A stretch of 31,488 bases of DNA from a virus (Duplodnaviria; Heunggongvirae; Uroviricota; Caudoviricetes). Under the pieces are notes generated by a model. That model did not search any database and had not been told where the DNA came from. It was given only the letters and a program-made list of their open reading frames with translations. Position numbers and translations under genes: made by a program. The stretch lies in IMG/VR virus record IMGVR_UViG_2778261316_000005, one strand, 5' to 3'. This document shows positions 4,059 to 23,027 of this stretch, one piece after another. Positions within the stretch are counted from its first letter, which is position 1. The number at the start of each line of letters is the position of its first letter.

Positions 4059-4358
4059 ATGTCAGTAATTCTCAGCCAACCCATTAAACGCGGCGACCAG
4101 GAAATCAAATCCGTCGCAATCACCGACACAATCAAGCAGGCTGGCTCACTGCGCGGGCTGCGTCTGGTTGACGTTCTTAACTTCGACTATGACGCGGTAT
4201 CAACTCTGTTGACACGCGTCACCGCGCCTCAGCTGACAACCACTGATATTTCCTCAATGGCGACCGGCGACTTTACGGCGCTGTGCGAAGAAATCACGCC
4301 TTTTTTGACGAAAGCGGCGCCGTCCGCACCGAGCGAGGCGGCGACGGCGAGCAAGTAA
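4059..4358 (+). CDS. E: tail assembly chaperone gpE (zero-frame product)
   Basis: 99 aa; position between FII and tape measure; contains the slippery heptamer TTTTTTG at 4301-4307. Confidence 0.85.
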   Translation: MSVILSQPIKRGDQEIKSVAITDTIKQAGSLRGLRLVDVLNFDYDAVSTLLTRVTAPQLTTTDISSMATGDFTALCEEITPFLTKAAPSAPSEAATASK

Positions 4359-4531: not shown

Positions 4532-7493
4532 TATTCGCGTTGCGTTCAGTGCAATTGACAAGCTCACCCGCCCGGTCAGCGCCGCCAGTAAAGCCATTGG
4601 CGGCCTTTCTGACTCCCTCAAAAAAACACAGTCTTCCATCAGAGACCTGGAAAAAAGCGCAACGTCATTTGATAAGCTGCGCTCGCAAGCCAATGACACT
4701 GCGCAGAAGCTGAAAAGCACCCAGCGGGCCTTTGACGGTCTCAACCAGAAACAACGCGAAGGCGGCCAGCTTACTGAAGCCCAGACGGCACGACTTGAGT
4801 CGCTTCGCACCAAACTTTCCCGGCTGACTGAAACCTACAGCAGGCAAACGACGCAGCTGCGCACAGCTGCGCAGGCAGTGCGCCAGCATGGGGTTAACCT
4901 CACCACCGGCAGCGGCGCCATTCAGAGTGCCATCAGGCGTACGGAGCAATACAACCAGACGCTTGAGCGCGAACGTCGCCAGCTGGCAGCTACCCAGAAA
5001 GCCCAGGCCAGATACGATCGGGCAAAAGAGACTGCGGGCAAACTTCGCGGTGCTGGTATGGGTATGATGCTTGGCACTGCTGCTGCGGGCTATGCTGGCG
5101 GATCATTCCTGGCGCCTGCGATTGGTTTCGACGAGGAAATGTCACGTGTCCAGGCATTAACCCGCCTTAACAAAGACTCTTCCCAGATGGGAGATCTGCG
5201 GGCGCAGGCTAAAAAACTCGGTGCAGAAACCGCATTCACCTCACGCGATGCAGCCAGCGGGCAGGCATTTCTTGCAATGGCTGGCTTTACCCCAGAAGCT
5301 ATTCAGGCGGCATTGCCCGGCGTTCTGAATATGGCGCTGGCCGGCGGCATGGATCTTGGTGAAAGTGCCGACATCAGCTCCAACATTCTTTCGCAGTTCC
5401 GTCTCGATCCAAAGGAAATGGATCGGGTCAGTGATGTTTTGACCGCAGCATTTACCCGTACCAACACCGATTTAATGAACATCGGTGAGGCTATGAAGTA
5501 TGCAGGAACCGGGATGGCCGGTCTTGGCGTTGATGTTGAACGCACAACCGCCATGATCGGTGTAATGGCGAACGTTGGCCTGCGCGGAAGTATTGCAGGT
5601 ACGGGACTGCAAACCACCTTCTCGCGTCTGGCCGCACCAACAGGTAAAGCTCAGGCAGCCCTGAAAGAATTGGGCGTTTCTGTTGCCGATGCCACCGGAA
5701 AAATGCGACCGGCCGAAGTGGTCCTGTCTGATATTTATAAATCTATCAAAAAGTACGGTGACACAGACCAGTTGTCATTCTTCAAAGACATAGCAGGTGA
5801 GGAAGCAGCAAAGTCATTTCAGGCGCTGGTTAGATCGGCTGGTAGCGGTGAGCTGCAAAAACTCCTTGCCGATTTGCGCGGCTCTCAGGGTGAAGCGCAG
5901 AAGGCAGCGAAGGTCATGGCTGACAACCTCAGCGGTGATCTGAAAAACCTGGACAGCGCATGGGAGGGTTTCCGCATTCAGGTTGAGGAGACTGCCGACG
6001 GCCCTCTGCGCTCTCTCACTCAGGGGCTTAGCGATATGATCACCGCTGCCAGCACCTGGGTAAAAGAAAACCCCCGCCTGACACAAACAATCATTCTGGT
6101 TGTCGGTGGGGCACTCGCACTGGTTGCGGCAATTGGCGCTGCGTCACTGGCGATGGGTATTCTTATTGGCCCCCTCACCAAACTTCAGCTCGGTTTTTCA
6201 CTGCTGACCGGTGGTCGCGGGCTACTCGGCACCATTGCAGCTTTTCGCACTCTCGGCACTGTCGCGGGCCCGGCCATGGCGAACGTCAGAGGATGGTCCG
6301 TCGTACTGTCAGGAATCGCCCCTAACCTGGGAAGAATTTCAGCTATTCTCCCTGCGGTTCGCTCTGGTCTGCTTACCGCATTCCTGTCTCCTGGCGCACT
6401 TTTGGGATCGCTGACTAAAAACATTGGCATGTTGCTGTTGCGCCTCACTGGCTTGCCAGCAATCTGGGGCATGATCACCGGTGCGGTATCTATTCTTGGT
6501 GGGGCTTTATCTTTCTTACTCAGTCCAATAGGCCTGATTGGCGCCGCATTTGTCGCTGCGGGGTTGCTAATCTGGCGATACTGGGAACCCATTAAGGCGT
6601 TTTTCCTCGGTATGTTTACCGGAGTTATGCAGGCGATTTCACCTCTCAGGGATACCTTTGCCACCTTTTCCCCCATCTTTGACATGATCAGCAATGGGGT
6701 TAAATCCGTCTGGCAGTGGTTTACGAACCTCTTATCGCCAGTGCAGACCAGCAAGGAGACGCTTGATAAATGCACGAGCGCTGGGGAGACTTTCGGTAAC
6801 GTGCTCGGCGGGGCAATTAACCTTGTTCTGACCCCCGCAAAAATGCTCCTTGATACTTTAGGCTGGATACTCGAAAAGCTTGGCGTGTTACCCGATGAAG
6901 CAGAGAGGGCGAGCAAGAAACTGGATACCGCGAGAGCCAAAGCCAACGACCTGACTCCCAAAAAACCAGTTTCATGGGAGTGGGACCCACAGCAAAAGAA
7001 AATGGTCCAGAAGGAATGGAACTGGTCCCCCAAAAAAGCAGAGTCGCCAGTTGCTACTGGCGCACCACCAGGGGCCTCGCCACTGTCAGGAAATACCGGT
7101 ACGCAAAGACGTCTGCAAAGCATCGCAGACAATACAAAAGCAACCGCTGACAACACCAAGAAAGTCGGTCCGGGCGACATTATTTTCAAAAACCTGCCGC
7201 GTGCTCTGGCTTTGCGTGGCGCATACCAGGAAGCGCGTGTCACACCGCAATCAGTACCGCGAGTGGCAACACCCGCAGCTGGCGGCATTATTTCAGCGAC
7301 AGCAGCCACACAGGCTCCGGTATCAGCTCCTGTTACCGCTCCGACCGGCGGTGCCCCAGTTTTTAACATTACCTTTAACGATGTTGGTAAGCGCACGGAT
7401 CAGGAGCTGGAGAGAATGATGCGCAATGTTGTGCGTGATGCGATGGCCAGCACCGGCAGAATTAACCGTGGTTCTTTCCGCGACAGAGATTAG
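4521..7493 (+). CDS. T: tail tape measure protein gpT
   Basis: About 990 aa with coiled-coil N-terminal part, hydrophobic Gly/Ala-rich central segments and a C-terminal region; start placed at the ATG 9 nt after AGGAGG (the ORF is open from 4500). Confidence 0.9.
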   Translation: MDLSIRVAFSAIDKLTRPVSAASKAIGGLSDSLKKTQSSIRDLEKSATSFDKLRSQANDTAQKLKSTQRAFDGLNQKQREGGQLTEAQTARLESLRTKLSRLTETYSRQTTQLRTAAQAVRQHGVNLTTGSGAIQSAIRRTEQYNQTLERERRQLAATQKAQARYDRAKETAGKLRGAGMGMMLGTAAAGYAGGSFLAPAIGFDEEMSRVQALTRLNKDSSQMGDLRAQAKKLGAETAFTSRDAASGQAFLAMAGFTPEAIQAALPGVLNMALAGGMDLGESADISSNILSQFRLDPKEMDRVSDVLTAAFTRTNTDLMNIGEAMKYAGTGMAGLGVDVERTTAMIGVMANVGLRGSIAGTGLQTTFSRLAAPTGKAQAALKELGVSVADATGKMRPAEVVLSDIYKSIKKYGDTDQLSFFKDIAGEEAAKSFQALVRSAGSGELQKLLADLRGSQGEAQKAAKVMADNLSGDLKNLDSAWEGFRIQVEETADGPLRSLTQGLSDMITAASTWVKENPRLTQTIILVVGGALALVAAIGAASLAMGILIGPLTKLQLGFSLLTGGRGLLGTIAAFRTLGTVAGPAMANVRGWSVVLSGIAPNLGRISAILPAVRSGLLTAFLSPGALLGSLTKNIGMLLLRLTGLPAIWGMITGAVSILGGALSFLLSPIGLIGAAFVAAGLLIWRYWEPIKAFFLGMFTGVMQAISPLRDTFATFSPIFDMISNGVKSVWQWFTNLLSPVQTSKETLDKCTSAGETFGNVLGGAINLVLTPAKMLLDTLGWILEKLGVLPDEAERASKKLDTARAKANDLTPKKPVSWEWDPQQKKMVQKEWNWSPKKAESPVATGAPPGASPLSGNTGTQRRLQSIADNTKATADNTKKVGPGDIIFKNLPRALALRGAYQEARVTPQSVPRVATPAAGGIISATAATQAPVSAPVTAPTGGAPVFNITFNDVGKRTDQELERMMRNVVRDAMASTGRINRGSFRDRD

Positions 7494-7998: not shown

Positions 7999-8567
7999 TT
8001 AAGCCCCTTCATGTTCCCTTCTTGCTGAAGGGAACTTTTTATAAAGCGTCGACATTCCGACATCAAAAATAATAGCCACCCGCTGTCGTTTCTCCCCTGC
8101 GGCTATCAGTCTTCCCGCCTGTTCCCATTGCTGCTTTGTCAGTTTAGGTCGCCTCCCGCCTATCCTTCCTTCTGCGCGGGCAGCAACCAAACCGGTGCGG
8201 GTGCGCTCAACGATTAACTCTCTCTCCATTTCTGCCAGCGCCCCATGACGTGAAAGAAAAAGCGCCCCATAGGTGTTGAGGTATCAATGCTGTCTGTCAG
8301 GCTGCGGAAGTTAACACCGCGATTGCGTAGCTCTTCGATCATTGTCACCAGGTGTCGCATGCTCCGCCCGAGACGATCAAGCTTCCAGACAACCAGCGTA
8401 TCCCCCTCCGATAAGGTCCGTAATAAACGCTTAAGGCCCGGCCTTTCCGCTTTTGTTCCGCTTATTTTGTCTTCAAATATTTGTACACATCCTGCGCTTT
8501 CCAGTGCATTTCTTTGCAGCGCGGTGTTCTGGTCATTTGTTGACACCCTTACATAGCCGATCAGCAT
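7999..8567 (-). pseudogene. Hin/Gin/Pin/Cin-family serine DNA invertase, split by a 1-nt frameshift (or homopolymer sequencing error)
   Basis: The N-terminal ORF (8214-8567) has the catalytic motif YVRVSTNDQ and ...MGRFFFHVM; the C-terminal ORF (7999-8229) has the HTH domain ...ALAEMERELIVERTRTGL... in another frame. One base is missing in the run at 8241-8244; the joined product would be about 189 aa. Confidence 0.8.
8013..8040 (+). terminator. intrinsic terminator of the FI-U operon
   Basis: Stem GTTCCCTT / AAGGGAAC with a 7-nt loop followed by TTTTT, 22 nt after the U stop; it lies inside the 3' coding end of the minus-strand invertase. Confidence 0.6.
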
Positions 8568-8673
8568 AAAAATCCCCTTTATTTAGATGCCATAGTCCCT
8601 CGCATTGTATCGAGCATCGTCATTTCTGGCTGTACTGCAGGTTAGGTACCGCACCGTCAGAAGTAACTATGTC

Positions 8674-8699
8674 TTCCGGCAAACGTTGGTTTAGGAGAT
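8674..8699. other. gix/hix-like 26-bp invertase crossover site (left boundary of the invertible segment)
   Basis: TTCCGGCAAACGTTGGTTTAGGAGAT resembles the gix consensus TTCCTGTAAACCGAGGTTTTGGATAA; lies between the invertase start and the promoterless alternative fibre tip. Confidence 0.6.
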
Positions 8700-8729
8700 A
8701 TCAGTGCTACAGGTGTTGCGACAGGTAGT

Positions 8730-9065
8730 ATGGGCGGAACCGGATATGCCATATTTCCGATGATGATTGGCGGTGCACGTAAGACTTTTATTATGCAATG
8801 GGGATTGCTGACGCCTCTGAAATCAGGTGGCTATGTGAATATTAACCTTCCTGTCGCTTTTCCTACTATGGTGATGCAGGCATATGCAACACATGATAAT
8901 GCGACACTAAACACACGCCCGACAGTATATGCAATTACTACAACAAGCCGAACCACTATCACTGCGACGGCGACGTGCTTAGATGCTGGCTCAGTGGGCG
9001 CTACAGTGACACGCAGTAGTGACGATACTGCGTGTTACGGTCGTTATTTTGCAATAGGGTGCTGA
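8730..9065 (+). CDS. alternative tail fibre C-terminal variable cassette (Sv'-like), silent in this orientation
   Basis: Reading frame is open back to the left gix-like site (…PANVGLGDISATGVATGSMGGTG…), with no start or promoter of its own; Gly/Thr-rich fibre-tip-like sequence; directly followed by an assembly gene. Confidence 0.55.
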   Translation: MGGTGYAIFPMMIGGARKTFIMQWGLLTPLKSGGYVNINLPVAFPTMVMQAYATHDNATLNTRPTVYAITTTSRTTITATATCLDAGSVGATVTRSSDDTACYGRYFAIGC

Positions 9066-9066
9066 A

Positions 9067-9510
9067 ATGAATCTTAAATATTTTTCTCCATCTGAAAATG
9101 CGTTTTATGCCGGGGAGCTTAAAGAAAGCTATATCGCTGCTGGCTCATGGCCTTCTGATGCCTCGGAGGTTGATGAAAGTCTTTATCTTGAGTTTATCGA
9201 TAAACCGCCAGCAGGTAAGTATCGAGGAGTGGATAATGCAGGAATGCCCTGCTGGCTTGAAATTCCTCCTCCCACAGTAGAGGAAATGGCATCGAATGCA
9301 GAGAATATAAGACAGCAGCTCATTGATAAGGCAAATGTTTATATAAACAATCGTCAGTGGCCGGGAAAAGCAGCGATAGGCCGTTTAAAGGCAGATGAAC
9401 TGGAACGATATAACCTTTGGCTGGATTATCTGGACGCACTGGAACTGGTCGATACTTCCGGTGCGCCAGATATTGAATGGCCTACGCCTCCGGCAGCTCA
9501 GGCCAGATGA
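9067..9510 (+). CDS. tail fibre assembly protein (alternative, U'-like)
   Basis: 147 aa; C-terminal ...DTSGAPDIEWPTPP motif shared with the other tfa (…TAPDVIWPELP); 3' ends of the two genes overlap convergently. Confidence 0.8.
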   Translation: MNLKYFSPSENAFYAGELKESYIAAGSWPSDASEVDESLYLEFIDKPPAGKYRGVDNAGMPCWLEIPPPTVEEMASNAENIRQQLIDKANVYINNRQWPGKAAIGRLKADELERYNLWLDYLDALELVDTSGAPDIEWPTPPAAQAR

Positions 9511-10084
9511 CATCCGGCGCGGTGCTGGTATCCGTTGCCGTCACCGCGTCAATGTAATCCAGCACAGCGTTTAATCGGGTGGTTTCTGTCTGCGTCAGCT
9601 TCCTCCCGGCCTGCAATTTCAGTTGAATCAGACTAATGGAAGCCATTGCAGTATCAATCAGTGACTGACGCTGTGCTTCTGCCGCGCTTACTGCGGCGCT
9701 ATGCTGTGCCTCAGTATCTGTCACCCATTTCTCACCATCCCATTTATCGTATGGCGTTAACGGGGCGATAGTGGTTGTATTTTCGGGGTAATCACCCAGA
9801 GCTGTGATTTCTTTGGCGTCTCCCGTTTCGGTGTTATAGACGATTTCACCGCGATGGTCTGGCACATATTCCCATGAGTTTAAATCTGCCGAACGGCAGA
9901 TTGCATAACCAGCCTTATGTATACCAGGTTCATCCAGACAGGAATATGCCGGGATACCAACACCAACGGCAAGATATTCATTTGAAGTGGAAATATATTC
10001 CCGAGTTTCACCATCATAGCTATAGACGGTAATATCCCCCGCCTTCGTGGCAATAAGCTCGCTATTTAATACAGCGTTATCCAT
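9482..10084 (-). CDS. G: tail fibre assembly protein gpG
   Basis: 200 aa immediately downstream of H (TAATG overlap); tfa-type C-terminal motif. Confidence 0.85.
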   Translation of the reverse strand: MDNAVLNSELIATKAGDITVYSYDGETREYISTSNEYLAVGVGIPAYSCLDEPGIHKAGYAICRSADLNSWEYVPDHRGEIVYNTETGDAKEITALGDYPENTTTIAPLTPYDKWDGEKWVTDTEAQHSAAVSAAEAQRQSLIDTAMASISLIQLKLQAGRKLTQTETTRLNAVLDYIDAVTATDTSTAPDVIWPELPEA

Positions 10085-11370
10085 TATGCAGCCCTCACGA
10101 TAAAGTTAAATGCAATATTTCGCGCACGTGTTTCCGTTGATGTTCTGGCAACAAGTGATGCATCAAAATAATAATTCGCCTGTTTATATGTACCACCTAT
10201 CGCAATTGGTGTGAGATTTGGTTGCACTATTGAAGAGGTAAATGCGCCGAAAGTATTATTATTTGTCCCCGTGGTCATATCAAAAAAGCTACCTGTAATA
10301 TTTTGCAGCGTATCGCTCTGAGCACTCAATAACGCTCGCCCACTGTCCACTCCACGCCCATCATCCCAGCCACGAATAAACTCACCCCGCAGATCTGGCA
10401 GCACAAGACCGGGGTAAACCAGTGCCAGCTTCGGATAATTTTCAGCTGCAAATGGAGCGCCGTTACATTTCAGCCATCCTGTTGGTGGAGTGGCTAAAGG
10501 CCACGGAACAGGCACACCAACGGGTAATGCCGAACCTTCTCCCAAACCAAGGTTTTGGAGAAACTTCGCCACGTCAGGAATATCCCCGCCGTTTTGGCCT
10601 TTCTGCATCGCCCCGGTAATTCGAGCATCATCCCCCGAGGCTACCGTTCCGGCCGTTGTTCCAACATTTCGCGTCGAGCTGTCACCCAGCTCTAAATTCT
10701 GCCGTGCTAATGCGGTATCGGGTAAGTCCGACAGGTTGCGATCTTTTGCCAGCCGTGCGCTCCCGTTATCCATCGCAATTTTAACGGCCTTCGATGTTGC
10801 CGCCTGCGACTCGCTGTCACTGGTCACACTGCTGCTGAGCTGCACAAACCCTTTCTCTGTCGTTGACGCATCCGGGTGATTACGTGACTGCTCATGCGCG
10901 CGCAGCTGGCTGTCAACATACTGGCGTGTTGCCAGAACAACAGCCGGATCAATCTTCAACGTAACGGCTTCGGTGCTGCTGACAATCAGGATCACGCGAA
11001 TAACCTGAACGCGCCCGCTCCCCTCCTGCAACTGAGGCTTATAGGTTTCTGCGCAATTGGCAATCGCCACCATATCGCCATCTTTATCGAAAAGGCCGAT
11101 CTCACGAATCCACCACCCGCCGACGTCTTCCGGTATGACCTGTTCCGCAATGATCTGGCTGGCGTTCGCCGGGTCCACCGTCAGCATATTCAGAGGGGCG
11201 CGGCGTAACTCATGTACGAGGGCAGTTTGCGCCGGATTCGGTGTAGGCAGTACACCATTGCCATCACCAACGGCCAGCTGGGTAATCTCAACTTTCGTAC
11301 CCAACGCCGTGGCTTTTGCCAGTTTTGCCGCCCCGATATTGGTCAACAGGGCAAGATATTTAGTCGCCAC
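10084..11370 (-). CDS. H: tail fibre protein gpH (constant N-terminal part plus the currently expressed variable tip)
   Basis: N-terminus ...GAAKLAKATALGTKVEITQLAVGDGNG...HPDASTTEKGFVQLSS resembles P2 H; start placed at GTG 11370 with a GGAG RBS (the ORF track extends to a TTG at 11391). Confidence 0.9.
   Translation of the reverse strand: MATKYLALLTNIGAAKLAKATALGTKVEITQLAVGDGNGVLPTPNPAQTALVHELRRAPLNMLTVDPANASQIIAEQVIPEDVGGWWIREIGLFDKDGDMVAIANCAETYKPQLQEGSGRVQVIRVILIVSSTEAVTLKIDPAVVLATRQYVDSQLRAHEQSRNHPDASTTEKGFVQLSSSVTSDSESQAATSKAVKIAMDNGSARLAKDRNLSDLPDTALARQNLELGDSSTRNVGTTAGTVASGDDARITGAMQKGQNGGDIPDVAKFLQNLGLGEGSALPVGVPVPWPLATPPTGWLKCNGAPFAAENYPKLALVYPGLVLPDLRGEFIRGWDDGRGVDSGRALLSAQSDTLQNITGSFFDMTTGTNNNTFGAFTSSIVQPNLTPIAIGGTYKQANYYFDASLVARTSTETRARNIAFNFIVRAA
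10537..10562. other. gix/hix-like crossover site inside tail fibre gene H (right boundary of the invertible segment)
   Basis: TTCTCCCAAACCAAGGTTTTGGAGAA; its reverse complement matches the left site at 19 of 26 positions with the same central TT, and the codon phase is the same (N-L-G-L-G versus N-V-G-L-G). Confidence 0.6.
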
Positions 11371-16937: not shown

Positions 16938-17040
16938 CGTGTAGTCTCCAGAAAAGGTTGGCGGTGAGCGGACGGAGAAAAGCTAACGCGATGCGTTGCA
17001 GATCTCCGCCCGCGCCGCCAGCGCACGGGGCGCAAGTCGG

Positions 17041-17904
17041 TTATTTTTTATCGGCGGTGCTCTTTTTCGTCGTTGTTTTGCGGGCCGCCGTTTTACGTGT
17101 TGTGTTGCCAGGGTTGCTTTTGGTGGCTGGCTTTTTGGCATCTGGCACCGTCACTTCCGGCGTTGCTGCAGCCTGATCATTACCCCCTTCGCCCCCGCTC
17201 TGGTCTGCGCCCTCACTGTCTGATGCATTTTCCGCAGAGGCCTTTTTCACCTGCCTGGCAAGCTTATCGATCAGTTTTTTCACCCCGGCGCCGGAGTCGA
17301 GATTCAGCGCACGGCGCAACAGCTCCAGCGCAGTCGCCTGTTCATCCGTTGTGCCGTTGCACAATGCAAAAGCGCGGGCTTTATACAGCTTGGCCCGGAC
17401 AACGTCTGGCATATCGCTGTTTTCAGTGATCTCCTGGACCTCATCGAGCACCGCCAGATATGGCTTAACATCAGTGCTGTCATCCGCCTTGACCTGCAAC
17501 AGAATGGGATCGCAAATCTCATCGACCAGCGCTGTCGCTGCCGTGCGGTTAAACCGGTCTGGCATTGCCAGATTGTGCGCGATGACATACCGACCGATGC
17601 GGACGGCCAGTGGATAATCACGAATATCAATCGCCCAAATCATCAGTCGCGTGATCACTTCATCCTGTCGCCCGCTGTCTCCCTCCAGCGTTCCTTCAAT
17701 CCACCCCTCGTAATTGGGTAGCAGCTGGCGTTTAAGCGCGGCTTTTGCCTGTTCGCCCTGAATTTTCTTCAGCGCACTCATATCCATACGCATGCGATGC
17801 AGAATTTGCTCGTGCGCTGTACGCGCCGTTTCTGACAGGTCATCTGCCTTGCCATGGCGCTCAGCCATGACGCGTTGAAAATGTCGTTGTGCCGGTGTCA
17901 GCAT
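17041..17904 (-). CDS. M: terminase endonuclease (small) subunit gpM
   Basis: MLTPAQRHFQRV...MPDVVRAKLYK...GVKK... resembles P2 gpM; start placed at ATG 17904 with a GGGGAAG RBS (ORF track extends to 17994); Lys/Thr-rich C-terminal tail. Confidence 0.85.
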   Translation of the reverse strand: MLTPAQRHFQRVMAERHGKADDLSETARTAHEQILHRMRMDMSALKKIQGEQAKAALKRQLLPNYEGWIEGTLEGDSGRQDEVITRLMIWAIDIRDYPLAVRIGRYVIAHNLAMPDRFNRTAATALVDEICDPILLQVKADDSTDVKPYLAVLDEVQEITENSDMPDVVRAKLYKARAFALCNGTTDEQATALELLRRALNLDSGAGVKKLIDKLARQVKKASAENASDSEGADQSGGEGGNDQAAATPEVTVPDAKKPATKSNPGNTTRKTAARKTTTKKSTADKK

Positions 17905-17950
17905 TGTTTCTTCCCCGATGAACGGCGGGCCGAAGCCCGCCAGTGTGCGG

Positions 17951-19000
17951 TTATGCGCCGCCTTCCGGCGCCTCGGCAAAGGTAATGCCGTCAATGAATG
18001 CGACGTTGCCGTAGTCCTCGATCACAAAGTCATCATTCGATGACTGATAAGTCGCAATACGGTTGTATTCCGGCTCTTCCTTGATCGTCCGGCGCAGTCC
18101 GCCGCGCTGGTAGTACACGGACAGGTTTTTAAACGGCGTGATCAGTACGCCATTGACCGGGAAGTACGGCGCGATAAAGGTCGGCATATTGCCGACACGT
18201 TCCTGCGCGACAATCAGCTGACCGGCCAGCATTTCGGTGTTAGGGTTGGTCTGGCTCATGGCGTTAATCGCCGGGAAGTTGCCGGTGGTCAACAGGTCGC
18301 CCGCCAGGATCACCACGTTGTCAGGATTACGTTTGTGCCATTCATCCATCAGGCTATTTTTGGCGTCGTATACCGCCGCGCCCAGGTTGCCGTAAGTCCC
18401 TTTCGCAATAACCTTGTTATCTTCATCACGCGAGGTGATCGTGACGCCAGAAATCACGCGGTGTGAGGCTTCCGTACGGATTTTCTCCAGCCAGCCGATA
18501 CCACAATCCTGCAACAGCGGGTTAGCCGCGCGGTCTGATGGATCGCTGTATTTGGTGCCGTTGAAACCGATCATGATGCGGTCAAGTGACATCTGGCGAG
18601 CCATCGCCTTGCTGATTAGAGGCTGGAATTCCGGCATATGCGCCCAGGCATCAAGCTGTTCATAGCTGATCCCGTAGTCGTAGTTGACCTTACGGCACAT
18701 GTAATCAAACGGCTCCATTGAATGGTTAGCCCCTGGATTACGACGGTTGGTGGTGCTGTTGTTAACGCCAGCCATCGGGCCTTTGCTGCCAATCAGCACT
18801 TTCTGACCAATCTGCTGATTAACGCCAAACACGTTAATTTTGCTCAGGAAAGAATCACTCTCCTGTGCGGCCTGCTCCATGCGCTGCTGACGCGCCGGGT
18901 CTACCGCAAATTTCGCAGCGACTGCCGCAGCCGATACGCCGTTTAAGCGCGCCTGTTGCGCAATGTACTGATCAAACAGCTGGCGGGTATTGTTTTCCAT
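17951..19000 (-). CDS. N: major capsid protein gpN
   Basis: 349 aa; …MIGFNGTKYSDPSDRAANPLLQD…GWL…NLSVYY… matches P2 gpN. Confidence 0.95.
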   Translation of the reverse strand: MENNTRQLFDQYIAQQARLNGVSAAAVAAKFAVDPARQQRMEQAAQESDSFLSKINVFGVNQQIGQKVLIGSKGPMAGVNNSTTNRRNPGANHSMEPFDYMCRKVNYDYGISYEQLDAWAHMPEFQPLISKAMARQMSLDRIMIGFNGTKYSDPSDRAANPLLQDCGIGWLEKIRTEASHRVISGVTITSRDEDNKVIAKGTYGNLGAAVYDAKNSLMDEWHKRNPDNVVILAGDLLTTGNFPAINAMSQTNPNTEMLAGQLIVAQERVGNMPTFIAPYFPVNGVLITPFKNLSVYYQRGGLRRTIKEEPEYNRIATYQSSNDDFVIEDYGNVAFIDGITFAEAPEGGA

Positions 19001-19857: not shown

Positions 19858-19933
19858 GTTCGTTTACTCGCTTGTTTTCTGAGTTCCCGGAGATGATGGC
19901 AGGGGGACGCATTCCCCCTCAACGCGTTGTTGT

Positions 19934-19951
19934 TGTGAGCGGAGCACTACA
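19934..19951. promoter_or_regulatory. TGT-N12-ACA dyad (Ogr-type late promoter activator site) in the divergent O/P intergenic region
   Basis: TGTgagcggagcactACA, roughly 55 bp from plausible transcript starts on both strands. Confidence 0.45.
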
Positions 19952-20017
19952 ACCTAAAGCGAGCGCAAGGGTACGCGCGCGCGGGTTAATCTCCCCGGCA
20001 GGAAGCGAGGAGGATTA

Positions 20018-22794: not shown

Positions 22795-23027
22795 TCTCCT
22801 GGCCGCATCGTCATTTCTGGCGGTGCGGTACCACCCTCAGCACCATCATTTCCGGCCATATCGGCCACTCGCGAAACACAAATAAACCACACCCCCTACC
22901 AGACGCAGCCAGCGGGCTTCTGGCGCGACTTCTCTCGCGCTGCCGCTTCGCTCAACCATCAACATGAGCGCCCGACAGGCGGCGAATGGCGGATGATATG
23001 ACCCCCTGCCTGACCCCCTTTGCGCGC

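Follow-up and report, generated by a model that had tools for sequence, protein, structure and literature searches.

Hairpins that follow capsid genes and intercistronic barriers to mRNA decay are textbook devices. The GC-rich hairpin of the REP/BIME type between malE and malF, studied by Newbury et al. in 1987, reportedly protects the upstream cistron, and the puf operon hairpins of Rhodobacter (Belasco, Klug) are likewise said to be intercistronic stabilisers. In phage phiX174, weak terminators were reportedly described by Hayashi et al. These elements, T_J, T_F and T_G, were also credited with mRNA stabilisation in older work.

T_J, T_F and T_G of phiX174 are located in the gaps after J, F (capsid) and G, and they stop 20-40% of transcription (bioRxiv 10.1101/2020.03.05.979765). 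In the Bacillus phage SPP1, a stem-loop of -14 kcal/mol is predicted at 8775-8815, and the stop codon of capsid gene 13 is at 8777 (PMC6316719, Table 2). Both cases illustrate that phages repeatedly place stem-loops directly after structural genes. The E-hairpin of the E. coli gal operon contains seven G-C pairs, one G.U pair and a 4-nt loop, and has no U-tract. It blocks 3'→5' exonucleases, defines the 3' end of galE mRNA and prolongs a pause; its function is lost when one basal pair is broken and is regained on compensation (PMC9239205). Here we describe a hairpin between the capsid gene N and the small terminase gene M of a P2-like prophage. We found no description of this hairpin in the literature, nor a transcriptome or 3'-end map of a P2-like phage from its clade.

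Results

Gene context of the N-M junction

The window (the whole stretch of DNA analysed, 31.5 kb) is a nearly complete P2-like prophage. Its head genes keep the P2 order O, N, M, L on the minus strand according to Pfam and PGAP, and P and Q lie on the plus strand, divergent from O-N-M-L. The genes and codons around the junction are:

19857-19024, minus strand: gene O, scaffold (Pfam, PGAP)
17951-19000, minus strand: gene N, major capsid protein, 349 aa (Pfam PF05125 Phage_cap_P2, E=2.9e-126; PGAP 'phage major capsid protein, P2 family')
17953-17951, minus strand: N stop codon, TAA
17904-17902, minus strand: M start codon, ATG
17041-17904, minus strand: gene M, small terminase subunit, 287 aa (Pfam PF05944 Phage_term_smal, E=1.3e-42; PGAP gpM)
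16937-16440, minus strand: gene L, head completion (Pfam, PGAP)

Positions 17500-18400 of the window (901 bases compared) are 100% identical to a prophage that is inserted between cpxP and fieF in E. coli PCP06171, and the PGAP annotation of that prophage places the N stop and the M start at the same points. In E. coli the lineage is rare, with 19 carriers among 5426 complete genomes, and its closest named relatives are P2-like phages of Klebsiella and Enterobacter. The M N-terminus, MLTPAQRH, aligns with MTSPAQRH of P2 gpM, and thus the N-M spacer is a purely intergenic insertion. The spacer is non-coding, because its lengths in relatives (42, 44, 45, 46, 49, 50, 51 and 66 nt) do not go in multiples of three and M aligns with P2 gpM from the ATG at 17904. 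The same two facts led us to reject a mechanical open reading frame (17041-17994) in which M would start upstream and run through the spacer.

Consensus scans, which are a weak test for Ogr-dependent promoters, detected no sigma-70-like sites in 13-23 kb of the window and no Ogr-type TGT-N12-ACA dyad between N and L; by these scans, neither M nor L has a detectable promoter of its own. The sole well-placed TGT-N12-ACA dyad occupies 19934-19951, within the divergent promoter region of P/O. Downstream of the hairpin, the same strand carries M, L and the lysis and tail genes.

Structure of the hairpin

The transcribed strand at the junction reads GGCGCA TAA ccgcacacu GGCGGGC uucg GCCCGCC guucaucGGGGAAGaaaca AUG, in which the spacer can be divided into ccgcacacu-GGCGGGC-uucg-GCCCGCC-guucauc-GGGGAAG-aaaca-AUG. 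Its elements are:

17905-17950, minus strand: N-M intercistronic spacer, 46 nt, non-coding
17924-17941, minus strand: hairpin of 7 consecutive G-C/C-G pairs with a C(UUCG)G tetraloop
17935-17941, minus strand: 5' arm GGCGGGC, starting 9 nt past the N stop
17931-17934, minus strand: loop UUCG, an extra-stable tetraloop closed by C-G
17924-17930, minus strand: 3' arm GCCCGCC, followed by GUUCAUCG
17923-17942, minus strand: hairpin with the optional closing wobble U17942.G17923, 8 pairs, -16.3 kcal/mol
17910-17916, minus strand: Shine-Dalgarno (SD)-like GGGGAAG of M, outside the stem and 7 nt 3' of it

The sequence-only reading had placed a perfect GC-rich stem-loop between the stop of a capsid gene N and the start of a terminase gene M, at 17905-17950 and with no U-run behind it. 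These coordinates are exactly those of the 46-nt spacer, the stem has 7 G-C pairs, and the gene names agree with the Pfam families Phage_cap_P2 and Phage_term_smal and with the PGAP annotation of the identical prophage. The 8 nt 3' of the stem contain 3 U and no U-tract, and a terminator scan made no call at the site.

The hairpin has a folding energy of -15.4 kcal/mol alone and -16.3 kcal/mol with the U.G pair. When it was folded in a 446-nt context, every stem pair had a probability of at least 0.998, and the U17942.G17923 pair had a probability of 0.55. Judged from the single sequence, the hairpin is statistically weak and only marginally unusual: the fold of 66 nt gives z=-1.6 and is equalled by 13 of 200 shuffles, and the hairpin ranks second to third among local minus-strand hairpins in the 31.5 kb, where several of similar strength lie inside coding regions. 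It is the comparative data from relatives, given below, that exclude chance as the explanation.

Rfam 15 gave no match at the gathering threshold anywhere in the window, and at E≤10 the matches around the N-M site were at chance level only (TarB, 17.1 bits against a cut-off of 80, E=3; M23, 15.5 bits, E=9.5). The pattern GGCGGGC-N4-GCCCGCC, with up to 2 mismatches allowed, occurs as a single copy in a search of the window. A dispersed repeat of the REP/BIME kind was ruled out by this single copy in the window and by the variation of the stem sequence between relatives. The gap between the tail-tube gene and E of the same prophage has no comparable hairpin, which rules out a stabiliser hairpin after every abundant structural gene.

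Occurrence among P2-like phages

From IMG/VR and GenBank phages, 255 loci surrounding N homologues were gathered, and both the N stop and the M start could be placed in 248 of them, of which 188 separate the two genes by a spacer of 42-66 nt. N and M abut or overlap (-4 to +10 nt) in P2, PSP3, ENT90, RE-2010 and 4LV2017 (Fels-2 type), phiE202, RSA1, K139 and phiCTX, and also in a Halomonas phage and in Mannheimia phages. Such junctions, for example TAAccgATG or ATGA, therefore leave no room for a hairpin. The clade that bears the spacer consists of the window lineage, Kp4851-1 (Reipivirus), 503458/P88 (Xuanwuvirus), SEN4/SEN5 (Senquatrovirus) and uncultured relatives, with N identities to the window down to about 52%. 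A GGGG(A/G) or GGAGAG motif is kept at the SD position of M in all spacer-bearing relatives. The N-M hairpin is thus a clade-specific innovation and not a general P2 feature.

An independent sample of lineage prophages, with one genome per species, contained the hairpin in 21 of the 22 that have a complete N-M junction and added two further stem types. The 21 are from Enterobacter, Kosakonia, Klebsiella, Pantoea, Erwinia, Brenneria, Pectobacterium, Serratia, Mixta, Izhakiella, Yokenella and Chania; overall, prophages of the spacer clade occur in more than 12 enterobacterial genera. The exception is from the insect symbiont Symbiopectobacterium, in which the stem is degenerate with a central mismatch.

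Losses were also found inside the clade. In locus L064 the hairpin is cleanly deleted between CGGGG direct repeats, one in the 5' arm and one in the SD, and 24 nt are left; the N-M gaps of L125, L126 and L129 are 13, 9 and 3 nt. The hairpin is dispensable for the family, as most P2-like phages have abutting N and M and natural losses exist within the clade.

Conservation of pairing and turnover of sequence

Among 51 distinct spacers, 50 form a GC-rich hairpin of -12 to -21 kcal/mol and outdo at least 95% of the dinucleotide shuffles of the same spacer, with a median p of 0.007. The stems are 7-10 bp long, and about 8 unrelated stem sequences are found across the clade. The stem types (5' arm/3' arm) include:

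GGCGGGC/GCCCGCC, the type of the window
GGCGGGGC/GCCCCGCC
UGGUGGGGG/CCCCCACCA
GGGCGGGC/GCCCGCCC, with G-C at the position of U17942.G17923 of the window
GGCCAGC/GCUGGCC, up to 10 bp in some
GCAGGCCG/CGGCCUGC, with a 9-nt loop
CCGCCGGG/CCCGGCGG
GCCGGGG/CCCCGGC
GCGGGCUGC/GCGGCCCGC

The loops of relatives vary as well (UUAG, UUUG, UGCG, UUAA, AUU, ACCU, GCCU, UAACU, AGCAA, GAUAACACG and others), and this lack of conservation rules out UUCG as a specifically selected tetraloop.

MAFFT lost the structural register of the unrelated stem families, whether whole spacers, hairpin segments or the arms only were aligned, and pair counts and controls were computed in Python in a loop-anchored register. 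Because the best hairpin of each sequence sets this register, the fair control is the per-spacer shuffle test. Over 35 distinct hairpins, pairs 1-7 were 99.6% paired, as compared to 37-51% when the partner was slid by 1-3 nt, and each of stem positions 1-7 is occupied by 3-4 Watson-Crick pair types. In the same 35 hairpins pairing drops to 57% Watson-Crick at position 8 and 23% at position 9. This steep drop past the stem shows that stem length itself is constrained. When the 3' arms were permuted among 18 stem variants, pairing fell to 57±5%, and none of 5000 permutations reached the observed 99.2%. One-sided stem changes on the sense strand comprise 7 G.U cells vs. 1 A.C cell (p=0.07); this excess of G.U on the transcribed strand is only suggestive of selection acting on the RNA of the sense strand.

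A covariance model trained on the sequences that kept their register recovered the close families well but only some of the distant ones (503458, L027 and L124, at E values of 0.004-0.09), and it also gave antisense self-matches. Across the clade, the stem begins 6-15 nt after the stop codon and ends 11-21 nt before the ATG, and the SD is never within the stem. Taken together, these stems show that the N-M hairpin is kept by compensatory evolution, with the shape conserved and the sequence not.

A second structure between M and L

The M-L gap (16938-17040; core 16960-17019) contains a long hairpin of -49 kcal/mol with z=-3.9. A 92-124-nt M-L gap of the same architecture is present in nearly all of 237 measurable P2-like loci, ranging from enterobacterial phages to those of Ralstonia, Burkholderia, Pseudomonas and Halomonas. 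The element has a lower helix GGCGG/CCGCC (GCCGG/CCGGC in the phiCTX group), a near-invariant 3' bulge (C/U)CA, a 7-bp upper helix and a variable apical part, and it ends about 21 nt before the L start. In 34 diverse sequences, 96.6% of cells are paired vs. 74% for shuffles and 39-58% for slid controls. Double changes occur at 10 of 13 pairs, and the covariation score is 0.573 vs. 0.137, a value that none of 500 shuffles reached. Counted from the pair-type columns, there are about 17 G.U cells for 3 A.C cells, which places the structure in the sense RNA. The U content downstream of the element varies from 1 to 8 of 12, so the element is not uniformly a terminator. No Rfam family matches it, and we found no description of it in the literature. 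Compared with the N-M hairpin, the M-L element is better conserved and harder to explain, and it is the more valuable lead.

Discussion

The N-M hairpin exists, is stable, and is conserved by compensatory change within its clade. Clade-specificity and compensatory maintenance are new over the sequence-only reading, as is the finding that the terminator half of its proposal is the weaker one. That reading took the hairpin to be functional, which is now strongly supported by the conservation of pairing amid sequence turnover across the clade, and it offered a partial terminator or an mRNA-stabilising element as the mechanism. Stabilisation fits best, given the resemblance to the gal E-hairpin, and partial termination is disfavoured as the primary role because the tails are poor in U and no downstream promoter was detected.

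By analogy with gal, we give about even chances to the view that the hairpin acts as a barrier to 3'→5' exonucleases in the late transcript, and possibly as a pause site, so that the upstream capsid mRNA would outlast that of M. A polycistronic late transcript would start at P_O and run through O-N-M-L and onward, with the hairpin normally being read through and folding in the RNA 9 nt beyond the capsid stop codon. Endonuclease cuts, Rho-dependent stops and spontaneous stops would create 3' ends within M, and PNPase and RNase II would trim them until they reach the hairpin base. The O-N stretch of the mRNA would then persist longer and be more abundant than the M stretch, and the hairpin may also lengthen an RNA polymerase pause at the cistron junction. 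A single promoter would in this way yield a large amount of capsid protein and only a small amount of the small terminase. We infer these effects on RNA ends, half-lives and the capsid:terminase protein ratio. The placement of the hairpin, directly after the most abundantly needed head protein and before one needed in small amounts, fits such a barrier. The freely varying loop fits a generic structural barrier over a protein-specific site. A point against the barrier is that terminating ribosomes may partly melt the stem, which starts only 6-15 nt past the stop.

The other readings have to be weighed against the same data. That the hairpin is a leaky intrinsic (Rho-independent) terminator, at which some polymerases are released and M and the genes downstream are stepped down, seems to us unlikely. 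A GC-rich stem of 7-8 bp with a 4-nt loop directly after a capsid gene would suit it, and so would the phiX174 elements after J, F and G, which stop only 20-40% (bioRxiv 10.1101/2020.03.05.979765), the SPP1 stem-loop predicted at 8775-8815 right after the gene 13 stop (PMC6316719), and the UUU found 2-4 nt past the stem in some relatives (SEN5 GCUUUGGG, L073 CCCUUUGG). However, the tail in the window, GUUCAUCG, has 3 U in 8 where about 5 or more in 8 are expected of a terminator, the 8-nt tails of the 51 distinct spacers hold 0-4 U with a median of 2, whole sub-clades have a single U (AUGACGGG), and the terminator scan passed over the site. Moreover, M, L, the lysis genes and some tail genes of the P_O operon would all drop together, with no promoter or dyad from N to L. 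The hairpin is not a canonical intrinsic terminator or a strong stop. A role in translation, by which the hairpin would keep ribosomes that terminate at N from re-initiating at M and leave M to be translated at a low rate from its own SD, we consider rather unlikely. In P2 proper, the 3-nt or overlapping junction would, on such a reading, couple M to N. In this clade, the hairpin, the spacer and a free-standing SD (GGGGA/GGAGAG) always occur as a set and take the place of the TAAnnnATG or ATGA junctions of other P2-like phages, and the constrained distances on both sides of the stem, the SD outside it and a stem length held to 7-10 bp all agree with uncoupling. On the other side, the predicted accessibility of the M ribosome-binding site was 0.45 for the wild type, 0.42 with the hairpin deleted, 0.50 with it broken and 0.52±0.08 for shuffled sequences. 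This predicted accessibility does not detectably change with the hairpin, which speaks against a role as an insulator of the M ribosome-binding site. SD-bearing spacers without a hairpin also exist (L064, L125, L126), and an elongating ribosome easily opens a 7-bp hairpin, whereas it is less obvious that a scanning post-termination ribosome does so. 

The junction also behaves as a mosaic boundary: N is 92% and M 55-59% identical at the protein level in the same phage pairs, and DNA identity falls from about 88% to about 66% right at the end of N in some pairs. This, together with the L064 deletion between the short CGGGG repeats of the 5' arm and the SD, could point to a DNA-level palindrome without RNA function (an insertion relic, a cruciform or a linker for exchange of N and M modules) that is kept by descent. 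We hold this to be very unlikely. Descent cannot account for about 8 unrelated stems that all keep 7-10 perfect pairs, a recombination linker would be expected to conserve sequence and not pairing, the 7 to 1 excess of G.U on the sense strand is not favoured by a DNA cruciform, and the motif is single-copy in the window and not a dispersed repeat. A broader and quite improbable scheme is that the N-M hairpin and the M-L structure (16960-17019) bracket M as a separately processed RNA cassette, in which the capsid and L/lysis segments would be kept and M would be selectively degraded or translated. Both spacers would then be joints for swapping M, the DNA-recognition module, which is visibly mosaic here. 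A milder version of this scheme takes the hairpin chiefly as a barrier to re-initiation by post-termination ribosomes; as a dedicated translational 'decoupler' it would belong to no established class of elements.

If a decay barrier is indeed the mechanism, one clade sets a very unequal capsid:terminase stoichiometry from a single late promoter. Prophages of this clade are common in Escherichia, Klebsiella, Enterobacter, Salmonella and many plant-associated enterobacteria. The relatives offer a natural experiment, with abutting N and M on one side and hairpin-separated genes on the other, natural knock-outs (L064 and L125/126/129) and many compensated stems. At 18 nt and with a flexible sequence, the hairpin also offers a compact part for adjusting expression inside operons. 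As a known kind of device, it leaves the current understanding of phage gene regulation unchanged.

Comparison with known systems

The REP/BIME and puf hairpins resemble the N-M hairpin in being GC-rich and without a U-tract, and they shield the upstream cistron from 3' exonucleases to give unequal expression within an operon. However, REPs are repeats scattered through the host genome that share a consensus sequence and usually come in pairs, whereas the N-M hairpin is phage-borne, single-copy in the window and of no fixed sequence. The phiX174 elements are likewise intergenic stem-loops after structural genes that most transcription passes, and transcript abundance is graded along one unit. 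They differ in being classed as Rho-independent terminators, several in series, in a single-stranded DNA phage with constitutive promoters; the N-M hairpin is single and has no U-tract. In SPP1, the stem-loop begins at the stop codon of the major capsid gene inside the late-gene cluster, which is the same placement logic, but it has a canonical 7-U run and is predicted to be a true terminator in a Gram-positive host. P2, 186/PSP3, Fels-2, phiCTX and K139, the canonical Peduoviridae, have the same genes, order and operon and a homologous M start; their N and M abut or overlap (-4 to +10 nt), which makes a hairpin impossible.

The gal E-hairpin is located about 130 nt past the galE stop, within the galT coding sequence, and acts together with a Rho-dependent stop that has been mapped 10 nt beyond it, whereas the N-M hairpin is 9 nt past the stop in a dedicated 46-nt spacer. 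In anatomy the two are near-identical, and both lie inside a polycistronic transcript, 3' of the cistron that is preserved or would be, in the same host.

Divergence and size of gene M

Gene M (small terminase) and its junction with the capsid gene N were compared with the corresponding regions of six loci (L017, L027, L028, L030, L066 and L073) from the set collected around N homologues.

about 17041-17950, minus strand: gene M and the N/M junction

The two genes have diverged unequally. In the same phage pairs, the N proteins share 92% identity while the M proteins share only 55-59%, and in some pairs the DNA identity falls from ~88% to ~66% exactly at the end of N. In every comparison made, the hypervariable stretch was the final third of M (about 17150-17300). 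Past this hypervariable end, identity between phages rises again at an RNA element in the gap between M and the head completion gene L. The unequal divergence, the step at the end of N and the recovery at the M-L element give M the look of an exchangeable module lying between two structured spacers (N-M and M-L).

M also varies in size. The small terminase is mostly longer in the clade carrying the GC-rich N-M hairpin (266-288 residues in the window, SEN5, Kp4851-1, L073 and 503458) than in P2-like phages with abutting N and M (216-249 residues); that of L028, which belongs to the hairpin-bearing clade, has 243 residues. The Pfam domain of the window's M product (17041-17904) spans only residues 35-167 of 287.

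A conserved RNA element between M and L

The M-L element was delimited by folding and by comparison of loci.

16938-17040 (core 16960-17019), minus strand: M-L RNA element

The M-L intergenic gap of the window gives a long RNA fold of -49.4 kcal/mol (z = -3.9). The element is also present in L081-L095 and in most IMG/VR loci, and its conservation is Peduoviridae-wide, from enterobacteria to Burkholderia, Ralstonia, Pseudomonas and Halomonas. The structure comprises a GGCGG/CCGCC lower helix, a 3' bulge, (C/U)CA, that hardly varies, and a covarying 7-bp upper helix with a variable tip; L starts ~21 nt past its end. Compensatory changes were found in 10 of the 13 pairs, a covariation matched by none of 500 shuffles. 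A search of Rfam with the element gave no match. The element might serve as a processing site of the RNase III type, as an attenuator or as a protein operator for L.

In five phiE202/phiCTX-like IMG/VR loci (L137, L139, L144, L146 and L150), the M-L gap measures 391 nt instead of the usual ~103 and holds an additional small ORF (ATGAACACCGCC...) between the conserved element and L. This ORF looks like a moron insertion immediately 3' of the M-L structure.

Natural losses of the N-M hairpin

Natural "knock-outs" of the N-M hairpin occur within the hairpin clade itself. L064 (IMGVR_UViG_2541047105_000007) carries a clean deletion between CGGGG repeats which leaves a 24-nt N-M gap, and the gaps of L125, L126 and L129 are 13, 9 and 3 nt, respectively. 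The insect-symbiont prophage of Symbiopectobacterium purcellii (L261) has a degenerate stem with a G x G mismatch at its centre. These five loci are comparison material already at hand.

Other structured and variable regions

681-708: strongest hairpin of the window, AAAAAGCCCCGC-AATT-GCGGGGCTTTTT (12 bp, -20.2 kcal/mol)
19858-20017: P/O divergent promoter region, with a palindrome and a dyad within 19901-19951
19901-19919: palindrome AGGGGGA-cgcat-TCCCCCT, adjoining an Ogr/Delta-type dyad
22802-22829, plus strand: hairpin past the portal gene Q (12 pairs including G.U, -19.3 kcal/mol)
about 8170-10800 (approximate): tail-fibre region, from the annotation of an identical E. coli prophage (L256)

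With A- and T-runs on either flank, the hairpin at 681-708 is shaped like a bidirectional terminator. It is located between ogr and fieF, close to the end of the prophage, within an ORF annotated by PGAP as 'hypothetical protein'; this ORF is therefore doubtful. The sole well-placed Ogr/Delta-type dyad (TGT-N12-ACA) is at 19934-19951, and 19901-19951 is presumably the late-promoter control region. The hairpin at 22802-22829 starts 8 nt 3' of the Q stop (22794), with no T-run 3' of it; it may mark where the P-Q transcript ends or belong to the cos region.

In contrast to the capsid gene, the tail-tube gene has no strong hairpin in the gap that separates it from gene E (about 4207-4256, plus strand). 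A 9-bp hairpin at 4581-4604 is close to the expected E/E' frameshift region. In the tail-fibre region, the tail-fibre gene is truncated, the tail-fibre-assembly genes are in opposite orientations and a recombinase pseudogene is frameshifted; the region looks like a decayed invertible host-range segment of the Gin/Cin type.
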